Of a stretch of 64,000 nucleotides of DNA, positions 4,858 to 16,766 are shown piece by piece. Location of the stretch: the NCBI GenBank assembly GCA_043805415.1, contig JAZDHZ010000033.1, forward strand, positions 89,600-153,599. The letters run 5' to 3'. Position numbers and translations under genes: made by a program. A model generated the notes under the pieces. The model was not told the DNA's origin. It ran no database searches and was given only the letters and a program-made list of their open reading frames with translations. Position 1 is the first letter of the stretch; each line of letters opens with the position of its first letter. The DNA comes from Candidatus Omnitrophota bacterium (GTDB taxonomy: Bacteria; Omnitrophota; Gorgyraeia; B26-G9).

Positions 4858-6507
4858 ATGAAAGTTGCTTTATTACAGCTGAATATGACTGTAGGGGATA
4901 TTTCCGGTAATAGCGCGAAGATCATCAGCGCGGTTAATCATGCCAGTGCTGATAATGTCGATCTGTGCGTTAGTTCGGAATTGGCGCTTTTGGGTTATCC
5001 GCCGCGGGATCTGCTGTTTAATCATGCTTTTATTGCCCAAGCGCAAGCCGCGCTTAAAGACATTGCTTTAAAATTAAAAGATAGCCCGGCACTTATTTTA
5101 GGCACTGTCGAGCCGGTCGCGCGGGCCGGAGCAGGTAAGCCCTTGTATAATTGCGCTGTGCTTGTTCATAAGGGTAGTGTGCAGCAATCATTTCACAAGA
5201 GTCTTTTACCGACATATGATGTGTTTGATGAAGAACGTTATTTTGAGCCGGCGCTGACTCCGGGGATGTTTGAATTCAATGGGATTAAGATCGGCGTGAC
5301 GATCTGCGAAGATGTGTGGAATGATATTGATTTTAATACCAGCCGGCGCTATAAAACTGATCCTTTGCAGCTTTTGGCTAAAAACAACGCGCAATGCATA
5401 ATTAATCTTTCTGCTTCGCCGTTTTCTTTGGGCAAACAAAAATTAAGAGAAAAGTTGCTGGCTAATATTGCTAAAAAATATCAGATTGATTTGGTTTACG
5501 TTAATCAGGTCGGAGGTAATGATGATCTGGTTTTTGACGGGCGCAGTTGTGTGTTTGATAAACAAGGCGATTTGATTGCCAAGGCCAAGGCTTTCGCGGA
5601 AGATATATTGATTTGTGATATTAAGTCAAACGCGGAAAAAATTAAAAACCATGAATGTTTGCCTGAGGCTGAAGCCTGGAAAGCCTTGGTATTGGGCACG
5701 CACGATTATGTTGAGAAATGCGGATTTAAAAAAGTACTGTTGGGCTTATCCGGGGGAATTGATTCGGCGCTGACCGCGGTGATCGCGGTTGAAGCTTTGG
5801 GTGCGGATAATGTTCTGGGCGTATTATTGCCGTCGCCTTATTCAAGCAAAGGCAGTATTGATGATTCCTTAAAACTTGCCGTTAATCTGGGGATTAAAAC
5901 AATCACAATCGCGATTAAGGATATTATGCAGGCATATGCTAATGGTTTAAAACAGTCCTTTACTGATTTTGAGCCGGGATTGACGGAAGAAAATATCCAG
6001 GCAAGAATCCGCGGCAATATTTTGATGGCTTTGTCTAATAAATACAATTCCATGCTTTTGACAACCGGCAATAAATCTGAATTGGCTGTGGGTTATTGTA
6101 CGATTTATGGAGATATGTCCGGAGGGTTTGCGGTGATATCTGATGTGCCGAAAACTTTAGTTTATCGGATCGCGAACTATGTAAATAAAATAAAAGGAAC
6201 TGAGACAATTCCTCAAGTTATTATTGATAAAGCGCCGAGTGCTGAATTGCGGCCCAACCAGTTAGATCAGGATAGTTTGCCGGAATATGATGTCTTGGAC
6301 GCGATTTTATTCCTCTGTATTGAACAGCATAAATCAGCGCAAGAAATAATAGACGAGGGATTTGATGCTGAGGTGGTTAAAAGAGTTTTGAATCTTTTGT
6401 ATAAGGCGGAGTTTAAGCGTAAGCAGGCTGCTCCGGGGGTGAAAATAACGGACCGGGCTTTTGGCATTGGCTGGCGCATGCCGATTGCGTACAAGCGAAA
6501 TTTCTAA
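4858..6507 (+). CDS. nadE: glutamine-dependent NAD+ synthetase
   Basis: N-terminal CN-hydrolase domain (ELALLGYPP, ICEDVW) and C-terminal NAD synthetase with PP-loop LSGGIDSA; 549 aa. Confidence 0.9.
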   Translation: MKVALLQLNMTVGDISGNSAKIISAVNHASADNVDLCVSSELALLGYPPRDLLFNHAFIAQAQAALKDIALKLKDSPALILGTVEPVARAGAGKPLYNCAVLVHKGSVQQSFHKSLLPTYDVFDEERYFEPALTPGMFEFNGIKIGVTICEDVWNDIDFNTSRRYKTDPLQLLAKNNAQCIINLSASPFSLGKQKLREKLLANIAKKYQIDLVYVNQVGGNDDLVFDGRSCVFDKQGDLIAKAKAFAEDILICDIKSNAEKIKNHECLPEAEAWKALVLGTHDYVEKCGFKKVLLGLSGGIDSALTAVIAVEALGADNVLGVLLPSPYSSKGSIDDSLKLAVNLGIKTITIAIKDIMQAYANGLKQSFTDFEPGLTEENIQARIRGNILMALSNKYNSMLLTTGNKSELAVGYCTIYGDMSGGFAVISDVPKTLVYRIANYVNKIKGTETIPQVIIDKAPSAELRPNQLDQDSLPEYDVLDAILFLCIEQHKSAQEIIDEGFDAEVVKRVLNLLYKAEFKRKQAAPGVKITDRAFGIGWRMPIAYKRNF

Positions 6508-8245: not shown

Positions 8246-8275
8246 TTGGCATATTTTTATTAAATAGGGTATAAT
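8246..8275 (+). promoter_or_regulatory. sigma70-type promoter with no ORF behind it
   Basis: TTGGCA (8246-8251), 18-nt spacer, consensus TATAAT (8270-8275). Confidence 0.4.
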
Positions 8276-9265: not shown

Positions 9266-9319
9266 CCACTGATTTATTCGTTTAAAGATTTATTAAATGA
9301 ATAAATCAGTGGTTTTTTT
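9266..9319 (+). terminator. intrinsic terminator after the orphan pilin
   Basis: Perfect 14-bp stem CCACTGATTTATTC / GAATAAATCAGTGG followed by TTTTTTT. Confidence 0.8.
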
Positions 9320-9380: not shown

Positions 9381-10487
9381 ATGCGGATAATTGCGGTAGC
9401 TAATCAAAAAGGCGGTTGCGGTAAAACAACGACATCAATTAATTTATCTGCTTGTTTAGCCGCGCTTAAAAAAAATGTTTTGTTAATAGACTTAGATCCA
9501 CAGGGACACGCGAGTTTGGGGTTAAATATCCAGCCGCAGGATTTATCAAAAACCATATATAATGTATTGACCACAGATAGCGAAGCCAAATTCCGGCTTG
9601 ATGAAGTTATTATCCCTATATCTGAAAATCTTGATCTGGCTCCGGCAAATATTTTGTTATCCGCGATTGAGCAGGAACTGTCTGGAAAACCAGAAAGAGA
9701 AGCAAAATTATTTCAAGCAATATCTTTAATGGTAAGTAAAAAAACATATGATTATGTAATTATTGATTGCTCTCCAAGTTTGGGTCTTTTGACTTTTAAT
9801 GGATTGCGTGCTGCTACTGAACTGATTGCTCCGGTGGACACTGGATTTTTCTCTTTGCATGGCATAAGCCGTTTACTGGAAACTGTCAATCTTATTGATA
9901 AACGCTTGAATTGTCAGATAAAAGTAAAAGCATTGATCACAATGTTTGATTCCAGAACTAAATTTTCCCATGAAGTAAAAGACGAAATTTATAAATATTT
10001 TTCAGGCAATGTTTTTGAAACAGTAATTCATAATAATGTTAGAGTAAAAGAATCTTCAAGCTATGGGGTACCTGTCGCGGCTTATGATAAGCGCTGCCGA
10101 GGGGCACAAGATTACAGCGCATTAGCCAATGAAGTTGAATCTCCGATGAGCAAGGAAAAAGCTAAAGATAAAACCAGCAGCGCTTCTGAGAAAATAACAT
10201 CTTTTATTCAGGAAGTACAGCAGGTCAAAAAAGGCACAGTAGTTACTTTTAATTCTCTGGACGCGAAAAATGTTGAAATTGCCGGTGATTTTAATAACTG
10301 GGTTAGTTCGGTTGATACTAAACTTGAACGGATTGATAATGGTGTATGGGCTAAAGTGATTCATCTTAAACCCGGTGCTTATAAATATAAATTTGTTGTT
10401 GATGGACAATGGATAACTGATCCCAATAATCCTAAGCTGGAAATTGACGAAGTAGGTAATAAAAATTCGATTTTAGAAGTTAAATAA
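9381..10487 (+). CDS. ParA/Soj-family ATPase fused to a C-terminal AMPK-beta-type glycogen-binding (CBM48) domain
   Basis: Deviant Walker A NQKGGCGKTT, A' LLIDLDPQG, Walker B YVIIDCSPS. The C-terminal ~85 aa are VVTFNSLDAKNVEIAGDFNNW...LKPGAYKYKFVVDGQWITDPNNP...GNKNSILEV. This aligns by eye with the rat AMPK beta1 CBM (VYLSGSFNNW...EGEHQYKFFVDGQWTHDP...NNIIQV). GAGGAGG Shine-Dalgarno. Confidence 0.8.
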   Translation: MRIIAVANQKGGCGKTTTSINLSACLAALKKNVLLIDLDPQGHASLGLNIQPQDLSKTIYNVLTTDSEAKFRLDEVIIPISENLDLAPANILLSAIEQELSGKPEREAKLFQAISLMVSKKTYDYVIIDCSPSLGLLTFNGLRAATELIAPVDTGFFSLHGISRLLETVNLIDKRLNCQIKVKALITMFDSRTKFSHEVKDEIYKYFSGNVFETVIHNNVRVKESSSYGVPVAAYDKRCRGAQDYSALANEVESPMSKEKAKDKTSSASEKITSFIQEVQQVKKGTVVTFNSLDAKNVEIAGDFNNWVSSVDTKLERIDNGVWAKVIHLKPGAYKYKFVVDGQWITDPNNPKLEIDEVGNKNSILEVK

Positions 10488-10507
10488 AAAAACTAGGATT
10501 ATGGTTT

Positions 10508-11425
10508 ATGAATAAATTAAAGAAGTTGGGTAAGGGATTAGAAGACATTTCCTATTTGTTTCTTTCTCCGGAGCAAGAAGATACTATTCAAGAAGAGTCC
10601 ATGGCTGAAAAAAAGAAAATTTTAACTGAAACTATTGAGATTACGACAAAAAACATTTGTTTAATCGGCAATAGCCATGATTCGCGAGATGCTTTTTTAG
10701 TGATTAATTTATCATTAGCTTTGGCTAGACTGGGGATGCGTATCGCGGTAGTTGATATGGATGAGAAGCTTCCTTGTCTAAATTTTTTATTAGGAAAAAG
10801 CGCTAACAATGGATCGCAAAATAATGATCAGGAAATTGTTCGCCAAGGGCCTTTTGGCGTAAAGCTGGCAGGGCTAAATGAGTCTCTGCTTGAAAATATG
10901 TTGGTTGATTCTGTTGCTAGAAAAACAATTATGCTGGAACTGAAAAAAATGGAAGAAGAAGTTGATCTTGTGCTGATTAGTGTATCACAAGATAGCCTTT
11001 ATTATATGAATCCATTGCTTAGAAAATCAATAGAAGAATTTCTAGTTTTTGTTTCTCCGGATAAAAACTCAATGCTTAATTCTTATAAAGTTGTAAAAAC
11101 CATTTTTTCTAATAACCCGGTTGCTAAAATTGGTACGATTATAACTGATATTGAACACATGTATGAAATTGACGCGGTGTTTAATAAAATGTTTTCCGCG
11201 GTAAAGAAATTTCTGGTTAAAGAGCTGTATAAATATGGATTTCTTTTTAAACTAAAACAGGAAATTAATAACAACGCGAATATCGCTTCTTTTTATGACG
11301 CGGATTTGACGGCTTGCATCTCAAATATCGCGCAGATTATTATATTGCGCTTGAACCTTGCGGAAAATGTTAAATCAAGCGGGGAATTATTTAAAAATGT
11401 TTTTAATGAGTTTGGGATAAATTGA
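10508..11425 (+). CDS. MinD/ParA-fold pseudo-ATPase with ParB-N-terminus-like peptide
   Basis: The region ICLIGNSHDSRDAFLVINLSLALARLGMRIAVVDMDEKLPCLNFLLG aligns with the MinD segment SGKGGVGKTT...[16 protein letters not shown]. The P-loop is replaced by GNSHDSRD, with no lysines. The N-terminus is MNKLKKLGKGLEDISYLFLS. Confidence 0.55.
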   Translation: MNKLKKLGKGLEDISYLFLSPEQEDTIQEESMAEKKKILTETIEITTKNICLIGNSHDSRDAFLVINLSLALARLGMRIAVVDMDEKLPCLNFLLGKSANNGSQNNDQEIVRQGPFGVKLAGLNESLLENMLVDSVARKTIMLELKKMEEEVDLVLISVSQDSLYYMNPLLRKSIEEFLVFVSPDKNSMLNSYKVVKTIFSNNPVAKIGTIITDIEHMYEIDAVFNKMFSAVKKFLVKELYKYGFLFKLKQEINNNANIASFYDADLTACISNIAQIIILRLNLAENVKSSGELFKNVFNEFGIN

Positions 11426-11432
11426 GGCTGTT

Positions 11433-12128
11433 ATGACAACGATATTTCACAACGCGCAAATTAATAAAGAAAAACTCAGACAGATTATTTTAAAAAATCC
11501 GCAATCTCTGCTCGCGGGATTAAGTTTTATTGATTTAGAGATGGCTACGGATGAGTCTGGAGTCATTGATTTCTTAGGAGTGGATATAACTGGGCGCATG
11601 GTGGTTGTGAATTTTGATACCCAGGCTAATGACCAGATGCTCATAGAAATATTGTCTCAAATTCAATGGCTCAAAAAAAATGAAGGATTAATCAAAAGGT
11701 TATTTTTTAGTGAGAGCGTGGATTTTGAACAAGCGCCTCAAATGCTTTTGGTTTGTCCTGTTTTTTCCAATAAAATCCAATCAGCGGTAAAACAATTGAC
11801 GGATAAAGATATAAAACTTTTAAAATTTAAATATATTGTCTCAAACGCTGATGACGCGATAATCTTTGACGAGGTATTTTCCAGTATAAATTCAGCCTCC
11901 GCGCCAGCTTTAAAAACTCAACTATCAACTGACCGGGAAAGTATAATGGTTGATCGCGCTGCTTTAACCAAGCACGCGCCGCTAATTAAAAAGACGGTAT
12001 CAGAAATAAGTGAAGACGCGAAAAAAGAACAATCTCCCCTATATGATGTGATTACTCTTACGCCGGAAGAGATTACGGAATTCATGGATTTTAATATAGC
12101 CTTGGCACAGAGCCAAGCAGCTGATTAA
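11433..12128 (+). CDS. hypothetical protein, N-terminal NucS/DUF91-like (PD-(D/E)xK-fold-like) region with degenerate active site
   Basis: SGVIDFLGVDITGRMVVVNFDT resembles the G-x-I-D-L-L-x-x-D-x-x-G-x-x-V-V-V-E-x-K core of NucS-type nucleases. Here the E-x-K reads N-F-D. Acidic C-terminus. The start lies 8 nt after the previous gene, with a GAGG Shine-Dalgarno. Confidence 0.3.
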   Translation: MTTIFHNAQINKEKLRQIILKNPQSLLAGLSFIDLEMATDESGVIDFLGVDITGRMVVVNFDTQANDQMLIEILSQIQWLKKNEGLIKRLFFSESVDFEQAPQMLLVCPVFSNKIQSAVKQLTDKDIKLLKFKYIVSNADDAIIFDEVFSSINSASAPALKTQLSTDRESIMVDRAALTKHAPLIKKTVSEISEDAKKEQSPLYDVITLTPEEITEFMDFNIALAQSQAAD

Positions 12129-12231
12129 GAATAAAACTCTAACCGATTATATAGCTGATCAAATCCTAAATTAAAACCTGCCTGATAATGATTATTAAAT
12201 TTACTACGCAAGTTCTTAGAGGTGAGAAAAT

Positions 12232-12987
12232 ATGCAAGGTGTAAATAGATCATCATCGATCTATAAAATAAATAATTTACTTCCAAACAATATTATATCC
12301 GCTTTTTCCATAGGGAAATTAAATTATGATTATCGTGCTGGGAATGAAAGTGAAGTTCTAAAAAATAGAAAAGATTTTTTTTATCAAGCAGGACTTGCGC
12401 TTGATACTGCTGTTTTTCCCCAACAAGTTCATAAAGCAAACATTCTAAAGGTTGAGCAAAAAGACAAAGGACGTGGCGCGTTTTCTTTCGCGCAGGGCAT
12501 CCCCCAAACAGACGCGTTGATAACTAACGCGAAAGGGATCGCGCTCTGCCTGCTTAGCGCTGATTGTTTGCCGATTATTTTCTATGAAGCAAATGGCAGG
12601 GCAATTGGGATCGCGCATGCCGGATGGCGGGGAATACACGCGGGGATAATTGAAAAAACAATCTTGGCCATGGCCAATGAATTCGCGATTAATCGCGAAG
12701 ATATTAAAGCGTTTTTTGGCCCGGCGATAGGGAGCTGCTGCTATGAAGTTGGCCCTGAGTTTTTAGATATTTTTCCTGAGAATATTAGCGCGCGAAATAA
12801 TAAAACATACCTGGATATTAAAAGCTTAGCTCGGATAAAATGTCTTAGTTCTGGGATTTTTCAGGATTCAATAAATGACGTATCTATTTGTACCAAATGC
12901 AGTAATGACACATTTTTCTCTTATAGATCCGGAGATAATCTCAATCGCCTAATCAGTATTGTGGCTATTGGTGAGCAATGCGGATAG
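12232..12987 (+). CDS. pgeF: YfiH/PgeF-family (DUF152, laccase-domain) protein
   Basis: Family motifs QVHKANI, LSADCLPIIF, GIAHAGWRG and C-terminal CTKC...FFSYR; 251 aa. Confidence 0.8.
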   Translation: MQGVNRSSSIYKINNLLPNNIISAFSIGKLNYDYRAGNESEVLKNRKDFFYQAGLALDTAVFPQQVHKANILKVEQKDKGRGAFSFAQGIPQTDALITNAKGIALCLLSADCLPIIFYEANGRAIGIAHAGWRGIHAGIIEKTILAMANEFAINREDIKAFFGPAIGSCCYEVGPEFLDIFPENISARNNKTYLDIKSLARIKCLSSGIFQDSINDVSICTKCSNDTFFSYRSGDNLNRLISIVAIGEQCG

Positions 12988-13038
12988 ATAGCAATTTCCG
13001 GCTTAGGGAGCTATTTTTTATTTTGACTAATTATCTGC

Positions 13039-13067
13039 TTGACATTTATATGTATCTGTAGTAATTT
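13039..13067 (+). promoter_or_regulatory. sigma70-type promoter of the K/A-repeat DUF4912-like gene
   Basis: TTGACA (13039-13044), 17-nt spacer, TAATTT (13062-13067). These are the same hexamers as the promoter at 3458. Confidence 0.5.
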
Positions 13068-13113
13068 CTTTAAATAGATAATATCTTTTAAATTAACTAA
13101 AAAATTGAAAAAT

Positions 13114-14988
13114 ATGACAAAAAAAATAAGTTTCAAAAAACAAGCAAAAGCTAAAAATACTGTTGCGAAGAAAATTAAAACAGTAGAAAAAAAAGCTTTA
13201 AAAATCAAGGTTGTGAAAACTGCGAAGCCTGCGCGCAAAAAATTAGGTAAGGGCTTGGAAGATATCTCAACCTTGTTTTTGTCTGATATTAAAAAAGACG
13301 CGGTAATTGCTAAGAAAAAAACAATAAAATCCGCGGCTAAAAAAAGTGTAATGCCAAAGGTTAAAAAAGTAAAAAGCGCAAGTGTTAAGACATTAGGCAT
13401 TGCTATAAAAAAATCTCCTAAAAAAATCATTGCAAAGGTTGCTAAAAAACCAGCGGCAGCAAAGGAAATCGTTGCTAAGACTATTGCAAAGGTTGAAACA
13501 AAACCAGCAGTATTAAAGGAAATCGTTGCGCATAAGACTATTGCAAAGGTTGAAACAAAACCAGTGGCAGCAAAGGAAATCGTTGCGCATAAGACCATTG
13601 CAAAGGTTGAAACAAAACCAGCAGTATTAAAGGAAATCGTTGCGAATAAAACTATTGCCAAGGTTGAAAAAAAGGCAACTGCAGTAAATGATAATGTTCC
13701 TAAAAAAACTGTTGCTAAACTTGCTAAAAAAATAGCTGTAGTAAAGGAAAGTATCCCGGAAAAAGTAATCGCGCGTGTTGATGCGAAATTAGACGCGGCA
13801 AAGGATAAAAATCCTGAGAAAACTATGGCTTTAACTGATAAAAAAACTGTAAAAGAGACAACAGGTAAAACACTTGAAAAAATTGCAGTAAAACAAGAAG
13901 AAGCAAAACAAGCAACTTCCAAACCAATTATGAAAATAACAGAGGTGGTAGGGATGGGAACGTTAAAAAAGTCTTCGAAAGCGGTTAAAAAACCAAAGCA
14001 GGATAAACCAGCAGAAAAAAAGAGTACTAAAACAAAAGAGAATAAAAAAACACAAACCTTAGGCCCAATCAGTGATCTGAAGACTTTGTTTAAGAAGAGA
14101 AAAACAGCCGGATTAACTGTTGAGCCGCAGAATATTCAAACAGAGCAAGTTATTGAGGATAGCAAATTTTTTGTTAGTAAGGAAACTGTAAGTCGGATCG
14201 CGGAAGATGAATTTTGTGATTTGCCTGAAGGCTACGGTGATAATAGAATTGTTATTCAGGTTAGGGATCCGTATTGGTTATTTGCTTATTGGGAAGTTTC
14301 TCAGAGAAAATTAAGTTCAGTTGTGGAGAAATATGGTAGTGCTATCCATAACGCAAAAAGAGTACTACGGGTTCATGATATTACATCGGTTGCATTCAAT
14401 GGAAAGAATTCAAACAGTTTTTTTGATATAGCGATTAATGATGTTGCCAAGAACTGGTATGTAAATGTCGGCAATCCTGGGAGAAGTTATTGTATTGATC
14501 TGGGGCTTGTCTTAGCTGATGGGCGTTTTGTCGTGTTTGCTCGTTCAAATTTTGTGACAACTCCGATTGATGGCCCAAGTCTAATAACTGATGAAGAGTG
14601 GATGATTGTTGAAGATGATTTTAACAAGCTTTATGGATTATCTGCTGGATTGGGGATTGGCCTGAGTTCCGGAGAGTTGAGAAGACAAATAAAAACAAAG
14701 ATGAAGAATTTATCATCAGGGATATTGAGTTCACCTGGGGTGACAACAGTGTCTCCGCGTCGTAATTTTTGGATGGTTGTCAATACTGAGCTAATAGTTT
14801 ATGGAGCAACTCAACCAGGTTCTGAACTTACAGTGCAGGGAAAACCGATTAAATTAAATGAAGATGGAACATTTAGTCTTCGTTTTGCCTTGCCTGATGG
14901 AGAGCAGGTCATTCCGGTTCGGGCGGTTTCTCCGGATAAGGTTGAAGAACGGGTAATTACTCCTGTGGTCAAAAAAAACACGGTGTAA
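13114..14988 (+). CDS. Lys/Ala-rich histone-H1-like repeat protein with ParB-like peptide and C-terminal DUF4912-like domain
   Basis: I prefer the ATG at 13114 over the listed TTG at 13105. Residues ~45-60 of the listed ORF are KKLGKGLEDISTLFLS. A K/A/V/P-rich region of ~300 aa follows, with four 18-19-aa tandem repeats. The C-terminal ~250 aa (RIVIQVRDPYWLFAYWEVS ... FWMVVNTELIVYGATQPGSELTVQGKPIKLNEDGTFSLRFALPDG) match my recollection of DUF4912. Confidence 0.65.
   Translation: MTKKISFKKQAKAKNTVAKKIKTVEKKALKIKVVKTAKPARKKLGKGLEDISTLFLSDIKKDAVIAKKKTIKSAAKKSVMPKVKKVKSASVKTLGIAIKKSPKKIIAKVAKKPAAAKEIVAKTIAKVETKPAVLKEIVAHKTIAKVETKPVAAKEIVAHKTIAKVETKPAVLKEIVANKTIAKVEKKATAVNDNVPKKTVAKLAKKIAVVKESIPEKVIARVDAKLDAAKDKNPEKTMALTDKKTVKETTGKTLEKIAVKQEEAKQATSKPIMKITEVVGMGTLKKSSKAVKKPKQDKPAEKKSTKTKENKKTQTLGPISDLKTLFKKRKTAGLTVEPQNIQTEQVIEDSKFFVSKETVSRIAEDEFCDLPEGYGDNRIVIQVRDPYWLFAYWEVSQRKLSSVVEKYGSAIHNAKRVLRVHDITSVAFNGKNSNSFFDIAINDVAKNWYVNVGNPGRSYCIDLGLVLADGRFVVFARSNFVTTPIDGPSLITDEEWMIVEDDFNKLYGLSAGLGIGLSSGELRRQIKTKMKNLSSGILSSPGVTTVSPRRNFWMVVNTELIVYGATQPGSELTVQGKPIKLNEDGTFSLRFALPDGEQVIPVRAVSPDKVEERVITPVVKKNTV
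13447..13671 (+). repeat. in-frame tandem repeat, 54+57+57+57 nt, inside the K/A-rich CDS
   Basis: Units encode KPAAAKEIVAKTIAKVET / KPAVLKEIVAHKTIAKVET / KPVAAKEIVAHKTIAKVET / KPAVLKEIVANKTIAKVEK. The nucleotide copies are near identical. Confidence 0.9.
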
Positions 14989-15020
14989 GTGCTGGAATCC
15001 TTTAACATGCTTTTTAATCG

Positions 15021-15058
15021 CGCCGGAATGAGTATTAACATTCCGGCGTTTTATTTTT
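15021..15058 (+). terminator. intrinsic terminator after the DUF4912-like gene
   Basis: Perfect 10-bp stem CGCCGGAATG / CATTCCGGCG, 8-nt loop, then TTTTATTTTT. Confidence 0.8.
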
Positions 15059-15185: not shown

Positions 15186-16766
15186 ATGGAAAAAGGATAT
15201 CTTTGTATTGTTTTACATGGGCATTTACCTTTTGTTCGTCATCCTGAGCACGCGAATTTCTTAGAAGAAGAATGGCTTTACGAGGCTATAACTGAGACAT
15301 ATATTCCATTGCTTAGTATATTTGATAAGTTGATAGAAGACGGAGTTAATTTTCGGATTACCATGGGTGTATCTCCGCCATTAATATCAATGCTTCTTGA
15401 TCCTTTATTGCAGCATCGTTACATAATGCATATAGAGAAATTAATCGAATTGGCAAGTCGTGAGGTTGAAAGAACAAGATGGCAGCCGGAATTTAATAAG
15501 CTGGCTTTAATGTATCTAAGTAAATTTAATCTTGCCCGATATTATTTTGCCGAAAAACACCGGGGAAATCTTTTAGAGGCATTTAAAAGAATTCAGGATG
15601 CCGGAAGATTAGACATCATGACTTGCGGCGCTACGCATGGGTTTTTCCCATTGATGGATACATGTAGAGATTCAATTCGGGCACAGGTAAGAGCCGCGGT
15701 TGAGCAATATAAAAAAGTATTTCAGCGTCAACCAAAGGGCATTTGGCTGCCTGAGTGTGGATATCATCCTGGTGACGATGAAATCCTGCGGGAAAACGGA
15801 TTAAGATATTTCTTTAGTGATACCCATGGGGTACTTCATGGTACTCCGCGGCCCAAATATGGTGTTTTTGCTCCGGTTTTTTGTAAGTCCGGAGTTGCTT
15901 GCTTTGGACGGGATCTGGAGTCTTCAAAACAGGTTTGGAGCGCTAAGCAGGGATATCCTGGAGATTACAATTACCGGGAATTCTATCGGGATATTGGTTT
16001 TGATCTTGATTTTGATTATATAAAACCGTATATTCATCCAGATGGAATCAGAACAAATACAGGAATAAAATACTATCGGATTACCGGGGAAACCGATAAT
16101 AAACAGCCGTACAATCAAGATGTTGCTATGCAAACAGCGGCATCGCACGCGTCTAATTTTATGTTCAACCGGGAAAAACAGGCGGAGTATGTGAAGGACA
16201 TAATAAAAAGAAAACCGATTATTGTCGCTCCCTATGACGCGGAGTTATTTGGACACTGGTGGTATGAAGGCCCGGATTGGCTTAATTTTTTAATTAGAAA
16301 AATTGCTTTTGATCAAAAAAATATCAAACTTATTTCGCCATCGGATTACTTAGATGAATATCCGAAAAATCAAGTTATTACACCTTCACTTTCCAGTTGG
16401 GGATATAAAGGTTATGCCGAGTTTTGGCTGGAAGGTTCAAATGCCTGGGTTTACAGGCATTTACATAAAGCTTCTGAGCGGATGAGTGAATTAGTTAAGC
16501 TTTATCCCAATGCCGGCGGTTTGACGCTTAGGGCGCTGAACCAGGCTTTGCGTGAAGTATTACTTGCCCAAAGTTCTGACTGGGCTTTTATTATGAAAAC
16601 CGGGACACATGTTTCTTATGCTGTGGATAGAACCAAAAAACATGTGCTTAATTTTACAAAATTATACAATCAGATAAAGGCAGATAATATTAAAGAACAG
16701 TGGCTGAGTGAAATTGAGTCAAAAGATAATATATTTCCTGACATTGATTATCATTACCATTCTTAA
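15186..16766 (+). CDS. GH57-family 1,4-alpha-glucan branching enzyme
   Basis: LHGHLPFVRHPE at the N-terminus, nucleophile region IWLPECGY, acid/base region APYDAELFGHWWYEG. The C-terminal helical region resembles Thermus/Thermococcus GH57 branching enzymes; 526 aa. Confidence 0.8.
   Translation: MEKGYLCIVLHGHLPFVRHPEHANFLEEEWLYEAITETYIPLLSIFDKLIEDGVNFRITMGVSPPLISMLLDPLLQHRYIMHIEKLIELASREVERTRWQPEFNKLALMYLSKFNLARYYFAEKHRGNLLEAFKRIQDAGRLDIMTCGATHGFFPLMDTCRDSIRAQVRAAVEQYKKVFQRQPKGIWLPECGYHPGDDEILRENGLRYFFSDTHGVLHGTPRPKYGVFAPVFCKSGVACFGRDLESSKQVWSAKQGYPGDYNYREFYRDIGFDLDFDYIKPYIHPDGIRTNTGIKYYRITGETDNKQPYNQDVAMQTAASHASNFMFNREKQAEYVKDIIKRKPIIVAPYDAELFGHWWYEGPDWLNFLIRKIAFDQKNIKLISPSDYLDEYPKNQVITPSLSSWGYKGYAEFWLEGSNAWVYRHLHKASERMSELVKLYPNAGGLTLRALNQALREVLLAQSSDWAFIMKTGTHVSYAVDRTKKHVLNFTKLYNQIKADNIKEQWLSEIESKDNIFPDIDYHYHS

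Follow-up and report, generated by a model that had tools for sequence, protein, structure and literature searches.

A catalytically dead MinD/FlhG-like protein with a ParB-type peptide: a candidate adaptor of a CBM48-bearing ParA ATPase in Omnitrophota and other phyla

Chromosomes and plasmids, carboxysomes, chemoreceptor arrays, flagella and division sites owe their positions to ParA/MinD ATPases, and each new cargo or adaptor shows how one ATPase chassis is re-targeted. What role, then, may be played by a member of this superfamily that has lost its nucleotide-binding motifs and is encoded directly behind an intact ParA? The question is raised by a stretch of 64,000 nucleotides from contig JAZDHZ010000033.1 of a Candidatus Omnitrophota metagenome-assembled genome (MAG), referred to here as the window, in which the gene of a MinD/FlhG-like protein (pseudo-MinD in the following) lies between the genes of a ParA fused to a glycogen-binding CBM48 domain and of a NucS-like protein. 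A database entry from a Candidatus Omnitrophota MAG has exactly the sequence of the pseudo-MinD product and is labelled ‘hypothetical protein’. The reading that we favor, with moderate confidence, is that pseudo-MinD activates ParA-CBM48 and, as its adaptor, ties it to the NucS-like protein.

The MinD similarity of pseudo-MinD is hardly visible in scans with the single sequence, which remained sub-threshold for both Pfam (CbiA, E=0.0016, under the gathering score) and NCBIfam (minD_arch, 0.0047); a family profile is needed. Searching the PDB with phmmer retrieved FlhG (4rz2) at E=6.7e-7, and a profile built from 23 pseudo-MinD sequences matched FlhG at 3.9e-16, FleN at 4.8e-15 and archaeal MinD at 2.5e-9. 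An AlphaFold2 (AF2) model of the protein reached a predicted local distance difference test score (pLDDT) of 75.5 and a predicted template modelling score of 0.74; its best Foldseek match was again FlhG 4rz2 (E~1e-13, template modelling scores 0.65/0.76), followed by MinD, FleN and NifH. The similarity lies well beyond chance, and the MinD/ParA (SIMIBI) fold of the original prediction is confirmed by the family profile and by comparison of the predicted structure.

The motifs that define an ATPase of this fold are lost. The hidden Markov model (HMM) alignment places N55-S56-H57-D58-S59-R60-D61-A62 opposite G-K-G-G-V-G-K-S of FlhG: the signature lysine is replaced by S56, the P-loop lysine by D61 and the Mg-binding serine or threonine by A62, and the Gly-rich loop is missing, which leaves nothing of the deviant Walker A motif of ParA/MinD ATPases. 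The loss of the signature and catalytic lysines had been noticed before, with GNSHDSRD set against the P-loop; the loss stands, and the register has to be shifted by one residue. The Walker B aspartate is gone as well (‘LIFDMGAG’ in FlhG aligns with ‘LVLISVSQD’), and with it Walker B/Switch II, whereas Switch I is kept as ‘VVDMD’ (D-M-D). Both termini extend beyond this core. Residues 1-44 have pLDDT values <50 and are predicted to be disordered. At the other end, an amphipathic tail with an ‘FF/LF’ pair that is kept in all phyla sampled is modelled by AF2 as a helix at residues 294-301; its median hydrophobic moment is 0.55 vs 0.38 in the linker, and it is possibly a membrane-targeting or autoinhibitory helix of the MinD/FlhG kind.

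The key to the proposed function is the disordered N-terminus. Residues 5-20, KKLGKGLEDISYLFLS, are nearly invariant in the alignment of close homologues and, with the consensus K-[KR]-L-G-[KR]-G-L-E-D-I-S-[HY]-L-F-L-S, form the best-conserved segment of the whole family: the peptide is at least 80% identical over 103 relatives from several phyla, while the bodies behind it are <30% identical. It matches the motif with which ParB binds ParA, L-x-[R/K]-x-L-x-x-[L/I], which has been defined by mutation; in Myxococcus xanthus ParB the residues that matter are L11, R13 (roughly half of ParBs have Lys here), L15, L18 and I19 (PMC12462528). Pseudo-MinD L7-G-K9-G-L11-E-D-I14 fits L11/R13/L15/L18 of this motif and, as in other carriers of ParA-activating peptides, lies in a disordered segment. 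An ATPase-stimulating peptide had been part of the original prediction, and this match to the ParB motif, the top conservation of the segment and the ParA directly upstream all speak for it; the peptide presumably activates ParA.

The distribution of the peptide points in the same direction. A back-translated version was used to scan a metagenome collection, where the number of chance matches is estimated to be <1, and yielded 70 loci: 41 with the peptide on pseudo-MinD (type A), 23 with the peptide fused to a NucS-like protein (type B) and 6 that are truncated or of other kinds. ParA is encoded immediately upstream of the peptide gene in 64 of the 66 metagenome loci with enough sequence (56 of these 64 ParAs carry CBM48), and in the 27 genome loci it is directly upstream wherever upstream sequence exists. 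Moreover, the peptide occurs on bodies that are not homologous to each other and adjoin ParA-CBM48, namely a 190-amino-acid protein, the NucS-like fusions and DUF4912 proteins. Judged by these contexts, the 16-residue peptide is a portable ParA tag. The 190-amino-acid protein (locus L005, 8092-8664) carries MERKRLGRGIEDISNIFIS on an unrelated, Cys-containing body without a Pfam match and follows directly on ParA-CBM48; by its sequence and position it is a third kind of client or partner of ParA.

A further copy of the peptide exists in the window itself, within the DUF4912 protein encoded downstream; tblastn with pseudo-MinD against the window detects it at E=8e-5. The two copies are identical in 15/16 residues, and 9 codons differ at synonymous sites; because 9/16 codons differ in this way, both copies appear to be held by selection, and a recent duplication as the origin of the DUF4912 copy is ruled out. 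The same peptide follows a Lys-rich region in the DUF4912 proteins of nine other Omnitrophota loci and is absent in six (L001, L002, L009, L011, L018, L021) and in a second lineage, so that it is not a universal feature of these proteins. A second short motif, [LM]-[GEQ]-[PS]-I-S-x-L-[KS]-x-L-[FLI], stands just before the core of the DUF4912 protein (window ~14040-14080, ‘LGPISDLKTLFKKRK’) and recurs in L008, L009, L012 and L016; it is loosely similar to the ParA-binding peptide (L-G-x-x-x-x-I/L-S-x-L-F), and in L009 it is present though the canonical peptide is missing.

The catalytic loss is old. The degenerate segment is common, as ‘CLIG[ND]xxDxxDAF’, to 44/44 close homologues (34-89% identity, ~300 amino acids, from MAGs of Omnitrophota and the Planctomycetes-Verrucomicrobia-Chlamydiae group). 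A scan of species genomes added members of 27-30% identity from Zixibacteria, Gemmatimonadota and Nitrospirae MAGs, whose P-loop segments are equally non-functional (‘TGDHRSLEKS’, ‘SLVPRLPSA’). A profile search of 1.84 billion representatives gave 2404 matches, and the best 150 of these comprise ~40 peptide-bearing clusters without Walker A and 105 ordinary MinD/FlhG proteins with Walker A. When peptide-bearing MinD-like proteins are pooled, from at least five phyla, GxxxxGK[ST] is found in just one of 103, and 102/103 have no P-loop. Across these 103 members, positions 55-61 are hypervariable and the least conserved part of the protein; conservation extends over the flanking helix A-F-L-x-x-N-L-x-L-A-L-A-R-x-G and many positions of the core. 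An alignment of orthologues had been suggested in the original prediction as a check on whether the P-loop loss is conserved, and its outcome is unequivocal: judged from these alignments, the catalytic loss is ancient and under selection, and pseudo-MinD belongs to an old pseudo-enzyme family. The system as a whole is spread over Omnitrophota, Zixibacteria, Gemmatimonadota, Nitrospirae, Acidobacteriota and others; in databases its components are labelled ‘hypothetical’, ‘AAA family ATPase’ or ‘MinD/ParA family protein’, and none has a name or Pfam family of its own. The single relative with a P-loop, P0216 (locus L103, 1266-3034), combines the N-terminal peptide SLGRNLKDVSDVFFS with an intact Walker A (SGKGGTGKS) and Walker B (DTGAG). 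It directly follows a 259-amino-acid ParA without CBM48, with no NucS-like gene downstream in this locus, and may be a surviving active, ancestor-like form with two ATPases in tandem.

What pseudo-MinD may connect to ParA is suggested by the third gene. Its 231-residue product resembles NucS/EndoMS (Pfam NucS_C 0.0023; profile against PDB, NucS 2vld 0.0048); the AF2 model has pLDDT >85 for residues 1-150 and matches EndoMS 5gke in Foldseek at 3.3e-7. The catalytic E-x-K is replaced by N-F-D (E to N, K to D). Wherever a genome locus extends far enough downstream, the gene lies directly 3’ of pseudo-MinD, and so it does in 23/24 metagenome loci with room for it. Behind the folded domain and a disordered linker, the protein ends in an acidic helix conserved as L-T-P-E-E-I-[AT]-E-F-M-D-F. 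The generalized motif, [LIV]-[TA]-x-x-E-x-x-x-F, is present in 23/23 complete NucS-like proteins encoded beside pseudo-MinD and in 0/22 complete type B fusions, in which the peptide is fused to a NucS-like protein of ~200 amino acids that ends a few residues past the folded domain, and no pseudo-MinD exists. Most simply, the acidic motif would be a handle, or docking site, that lets pseudo-MinD grip the NucS-like protein; the type B link between peptide and NucS-like domain is covalent, and handle and adaptor would therefore both be dispensable. It is because of this covariation with pseudo-MinD that we read the latter as an adaptor, a role that had been suggested before and is supported by the comparison of the two types.

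The upstream partner, by all signs, is a working ATPase, as had also been predicted. The ParA part of the 368-residue protein (Pfam AAA_31, 3.5e-53) is closest in the PDB to M. xanthus ParA (8ray, 3e-57) and then to Soj (1wcv/6iub, ~1e-41), and its catalytic motifs, KGGCGKT, D37/D39 and D129, are intact; both lysines (signature and P-loop), D37/D39 and the aspartate of Walker B are invariant in 120 full-length homologues. Two Arg/Lys positions matching the DNA-binding Soj R189 are conserved in the 120 homologues. So is the equivalent of M. xanthus R238, the R238E exchange of which abolishes non-specific DNA binding (PMC12462528). The hydrophobic ParB-peptide pocket at the dimer interface of M. 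xanthus ParA, formed by V116, L150, L152, L155, L187 and L192 (PMC12462528), has its counterpart in Q98, L134, L136, F139, L171 and L176, conserved in the 120 homologues as well: the four leucines equivalent to L150, L152, L187 and L192 are kept, V116 is replaced by Q and L155 by F. Q98 and F139 are family signatures and may insulate ParA-CBM48 from canonical ParB. The C-terminal domain (Pfam AMPK1_CBM, 3.8e-16) has its best PDB match in the carbohydrate-binding module (CBM) of AMPK beta (7e-11), and its FNNW, YKF, DGQW and GxxN positions are conserved in 120/120 homologues; by the AMPK beta1 CBM-cyclodextrin structure, these are the putative sugar-binding positions. The ParA-CBM48 fusion is widespread beyond Omnitrophota; the Nitrospirae versions of ParA are without CBM48. 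CBM48 on ParA, the NucS-like third gene and the second peptide on DUF4912 had not figured in the original prediction.

These elements could cooperate in the following manner: The disordered N-terminus of pseudo-MinD would offer its ParB-type motif to ParA. The MinD-like body, presumably no longer able to bind nucleotide, would serve as a scaffold that holds the dead NucS-like protein via the C-terminal acidic motif of the latter, and it may present the peptides in pairs. Such a scaffold would make mechanistic sense because ParB peptides, when paired, surpass single ones >10-fold in the stimulation of ParA. Affinity for membranes, or autoinhibition, may be contributed by the amphipathic helix at the C-terminus. 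Together, the three proteins would form a ParA-type, diffusion-ratchet-like positioning module. As to its cargo, CBM48, the neighboring GH57 branching-enzyme genes and the peptide-tagged DUF4912 protein are suggestive, if circumstantial, of a link to the storage of alpha-glucan (glycogen). The module might then be a multi-phylum ParA/MinD system that positions or partitions glycogen granules, in which ParA grips the polysaccharide via CBM48, the dead MinD/FlhG and dead NucS-like proteins replace ParB, and DUF4912-type granule proteins join via the peptide; we put this forward tentatively and with considerable doubt.

Several points weigh against the adaptor model and its extension to glycogen. 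All proposed contacts, like the stimulation of ParA and the nature of the cargo, are deduced from sequence, fold, synteny and covariation. The AF2 models were computed from shallow alignments of 23 and 21 sequences. The C-terminal tail, with MinD membrane-targeting sequences as controls, is weak evidence. The covariation of acidic motif and pseudo-MinD also tracks phylogeny, type B being largely one soil, Acidobacteriota-like clade, so that few independent events may underlie it. The CBM48 sits on ParA itself, whereas the classical layout puts only the partner on the cargo. Finally, the peptide differs so little from the motif of canonical ParB that the chromosomal ParA could be its target as well, or even in place of ParA-CBM48; the 64-kb window contains neither a second ParA nor a ParB box.

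Four other explanations of the locus have to be considered. The lost Walker motifs and the lack of a Pfam match above threshold could simply mean that pseudo-MinD is an annotation artefact or a former MinD/FlhG gene whose function has been lost in this genome. However, orthologues of full and equal length form 44 clusters, recognisable homologues occur in at least five phyla, the N- and C-terminal motifs are invariant among homologues, and the synonymous divergence at the conserved peptide indicates purifying selection; since the P-loop loss itself is shared by practically all relatives, decay is refuted, and we give it next to no credence. Hardly more probable is a true flagellar or division regulator of the FlhG/MinD type with a non-canonical nucleotide site, even though the best sequence and structure matches are FlhG, FleN and MinD and an amphipathic C-terminal tail is present: the glycines and lysines to build a phosphate-binding loop are lacking, the N-terminus has no DQAxxLR enhancer helix, and no flhF, fliA, C-ring, fli, minC or minE gene was found in the window or in ~100 related loci.

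More serious are two proposals that retain the partnership with ParA. Pseudo-MinD could face a ParA monomer across the nucleotide sandwich, as a hetero-partner of the kind named in the original prediction; in this pseudo-heterodimer with one active site, contact would be made chiefly by the body and only secondarily by the peptide. The two proteins share a fold, their genes are adjacent and probably co-translated, Switch I keeps its D-M-D, and P0216 with its intact ATPase also adjoins a ParA. Yet the former P-loop and sandwich segment is precisely the least conserved one, the signature lysine needed across the interface is missing, type B keeps ParA and peptide without any MinD body, and Soj-type ParA and FlhG-type pseudo-MinD belong to distant subfamilies, all of which renders such a heterodimer improbable. 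Alternatively, the module could be another kind of partition system, in which the dead NucS-like domain takes over the DNA-binding part of ParB by binding centromere-like or nucleoid DNA, pseudo-MinD does no more than connect it to ParA, the cargo is a chromosomal locus and CBM48 acts as a regulatory glycogen sensor. Type B proteins do have the build of small centromere-binding proteins: the ParA-activating peptide at the N-terminus is joined by a linker to a nuclease-fold domain; NucS/EndoMS domains bind DNA; and ParA is nearest to chromosomal Soj/ParA, with the DNA-binding arginines kept. Against DNA as the cargo stand the lack of a repeat array or centromere-like site beside the operon, where the only element found is a terminator-like hairpin, the complete conservation of the putative sugar-binding residues of CBM48, the GH57 branching enzyme near the module in three phyla and the recruitment of the peptide onto DUF4912. 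We consider segregation of DNA unlikely; this explanation concerns the cargo and is compatible with an adaptor role of pseudo-MinD.

The features discussed here are collected in Table 1.

Table 1. Features of the pseudo-MinD locus (positions refer to the window)
Feature	Position	Strand	Remarks and basis
Terminator-like hairpin between pilin-like gene and parA	9266..9312	+	20-bp stem and T-run; terminator-like scan
Soj-like ParA with AMPK-beta-type CBM48	9381..10487	+	368 amino acids; ParA residues 1-~255, linker of ~30 amino acids, CBM48 ~283-368
Pseudo-MinD/FlhG-like protein gene	10508..11425	+	ATG start, 305 amino acids; source Candidatus Omnitrophota MAG
Candidate N-terminal ParA-binding peptide of pseudo-MinD, K5-K-L-G-K-G-L-E-D-I-S-Y-L-F-L-S20	10520..10567	+	Conservation, motif match
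MinD/FlhG-like alpha/beta core, residues 48-250	10649..11257	+	phmmer, profile, AF2, Foldseek
Degenerate Walker A segment G54-N-S-H-D-S-R-D-A62	10667..10693	+	HMM alignment to FlhG SGKGGVGKS
C-terminal amphipathic tail G-E-L-F-K-N-V-F-N-E-F	11381..11413	+	Conservation, hydrophobic moment, AF2 helix
NucS/EndoMS-like PD-(D/E)XK-fold protein	11433..12128	+	231 amino acids; domain 1-153, disordered linker 154-206; profile, AF2, Foldseek
Acidic C-terminal motif L-T-P-E-E-I-T-E-F-M-D-F of NucS-like protein	12057..12092	+	Motif conservation
PgeF/YfiH-type (Cu-oxidase_4) gene	12232..12987	+	Pfam 8.9e-60
DUF4912 protein, Lys-rich repetitive N-terminal half, C-terminal Glucodextran_B-like domain	13105..14988	+	DUF4912 7.9e-38, Glucodextran_B 6e-6
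Second peptide copy K-K-L-G-K-G-L-E-D-I-S-T-L-F-L-S, internal to DUF4912 protein	13237..13284	+	tblastn
GC-rich terminator-like hairpin after DUF4912 gene	15020..15049	+	Consensus scan only
GH57-family 1,4-alpha-glucan branching enzyme	15186..16766	+	Pfam Glyco_hydro_57 6e-39, BE_C 2e-41

The three core genes are tightly packed: pseudo-MinD starts 20 nt past the ParA stop codon, in a different frame, and ends 7 nt before the NucS-like gene. In the loci of relatives, inspected over ±10 kb around each match, the synteny of this trio extends to all Omnitrophota loci examined and to Zixibacteria, Gemmatimonadota, Nitrospirae and unclassified MAGs. The gene order in Omnitrophota is ManC, pilin-like, ParA-CBM48, pseudo-MinD, NucS-like, PgeF, DUF4912 and GH57 branching enzyme. 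The PgeF/YfiH-type gene is syntenic only within Omnitrophota and probably stands outside the core module. A GH57 gene with BE_C directly follows the module in Zixibacteria and Gemmatimonadota and lies two genes further on in Omnitrophota; DUF4912 and GH57 occur in 7/13 type A metagenome loci with enough flank (some on the opposite strand) and in 0/6 type B loci. In a Pseudomonadota MAG (L031), a stand-alone AMPK1_CBM/CBM48 protein of 159 amino acids (6020-6499) is encoded ~2 kb upstream of the ParA-CBM48/peptide-protein/NucS-like module, and the peptide protein of this locus has a Pro/Ser-rich insertion of ~110 amino acids between peptide and MinD-like body. The start codon of the DUF4912 gene in the window is either TTG 13105 or ATG 13114. 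Its N-terminal half contains 57-nt tandem repeats (13416-13750, + strand, ~4-6 copies, 78-91% matches) that encode a Lys/Ala-rich repeat of 19 amino acids, KEIVAxKTIAKVETKPAxx; this low complexity almost certainly explains the antisense open reading frame of 303 amino acids at 13011-13922, which would then be an artefact.

The hairpin upstream of parA is probably a terminator that marks the upstream boundary of the operon; in a consensus scan, no comparable terminator-like site was found inside 9381-14988. Counterparts of this hairpin, sharing GRTTTATTC, exist in L009 (8697-8744), L016 (8819-8870) and L011 (8609-8677); the one in L009 is near-identical and has a compensatory A:T to G:C change, and such conservation among diverged Omnitrophota is unusual for a terminator. 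Other genes precede parA elsewhere: a gene of the MerR helix-turn-helix family lies immediately 5’ of the CBM48-less ParA in Nitrospirae (L028, 8526-9005; L029, 8599-9078), and a DUF3467 gene immediately 5’ of ParA in Zixibacteria (L026, 5386-5724), where Gemmatimonadota (L027) have a small open reading frame. Further upstream in the window, the type IV pilin-like gene, the true start of which is probably at ~8808 (MNRKGFTLVELL), is preceded by a match to the cyclic di-GMP-I riboswitch (GEMM-I, RF03167; 8334-8525, + strand) with 29.5 bits, below the gathering score of 59, and E=6e-5 for the 561-nt region searched. Its core, GAAAAAGGCAAA...GCAAAGCUACGG...AGCCGGGCUACC, is kept, with insertions of ~100 nt and ~35 nt; a strong promoter-like site (8246-8275, 11/12 match) precedes the riboswitch match, and the pilin-like gene follows it. 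Over the whole window (1-64000), all 2-kb bins except one have a strongly positive GC skew, and the long open reading frames are almost all on the + strand; at ~31.6-35.9 kb the skew falls to ~0 and the - strand carries several genes. The pattern is consistent with one replichore and a strong gene-strand bias.

What is new here is the adaptor architecture of a ParA-type positioning module and possibly also its cargo. To our knowledge, no ParA activator that is itself a catalytically dead member of the superfamily has been proposed before. Types A and B amount to a natural experiment on adaptor modularity, the link being non-covalent in one (pseudo-MinD and acidic motif) and a covalent peptide fusion in the other, and the 16-residue tag can apparently be acquired by further proteins such as DUF4912. 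The fusion of ParA to an AMPK-type CBM and the linkage to GH57 make active positioning of glycogen granules in bacteria directly testable; if it were true, alpha-glucan granules would constitute a new class of ParA/MinD cargo. In full-text searches of the literature, no description of ParA-CBM48, of the pseudo-MinD family or of glycogen as a ParA/MinD cargo was found, and glycogen is not among the cargos listed in a 2024 review of these ATPases (PMC11407121).

How, then, does the module relate to known systems? For the third gene, the comparison is with the C-terminal domain of NucS/EndoMS (2VLD, 5GKE): both have the PD-(D/E)XK fold and the motif G-x-I-D-x-x-G-V-D, whereas the NucS-like protein has no E-x-K and no NucS N-terminal domain and has acquired a disordered linker and the acidic C-terminal motif.

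For pseudo-MinD, the closest relatives in sequence and structure are FlhG and FleN (4RZ2, 5J1J). At the N-terminus of FlhG, a helix stimulates a partner NTPase; a MinD core and, at the C-terminus, an amphipathic membrane-targeting sequence follow (PMC12826062). Pseudo-MinD has the same three-part layout, with a presumed stimulating element at the N-terminus, a MinD-like core and an amphipathic tail that may or may not target membranes. FlhG furthermore binds the acidic EIDAL motif of FliM (bioRxiv 10.1101/2022.04.21.489128). Unlike FlhG, pseudo-MinD has neither Walker A nor Walker B and would thus be unable to act as an ATP switch. The FliM motif, L-S-x-x-E-I-x-x-L-L, has the same spacing as the C-terminal motif of the NucS-like protein; we take this as a lead only. 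The N-termini also have different addressees: in FlhG it is DQAxxLR for the GTPase FlhF (PMC12826062), in pseudo-MinD a ParB-type motif, presumably for ParA.

With ParB/Spo0J, pseudo-MinD shares a disordered N-terminus with L-G-[K/R]-G-L-x-x-[I/L], a gene position directly after a Soj-like ParA and a conserved pocket on that ParA. It differs in that it has no ParB/Srx CTPase domain, no helix-turn-helix and no parS; accordingly, neither a Pfam ParB match nor a GERRxRA box was found in it. Its motif is longer and far more strictly conserved (...E-D-I-S-[H/Y]-L-F-L-S) than that of ParB (residues 11-19 in M. xanthus).

A functional parallel may be provided by the adaptors and activators of orphan ParA/MinD ATPases, McdB of carboxysomes, PomX/PomY of PomZ and ParP of ParC (PMC11407121). 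As proposed for pseudo-MinD, these are non-ParB partners encoded beside the ATPase, with an N-terminal contact and a non-plasmid cargo. Two differences set the present module apart: (i) the ATPase itself, in contrast to McdB-type systems, bears a cargo-type, glycogen-binding domain; (ii) the adaptor comes from the ParA/MinD superfamily itself, as a degenerate member, and its place can be taken by a fusion of the peptide to the downstream protein.

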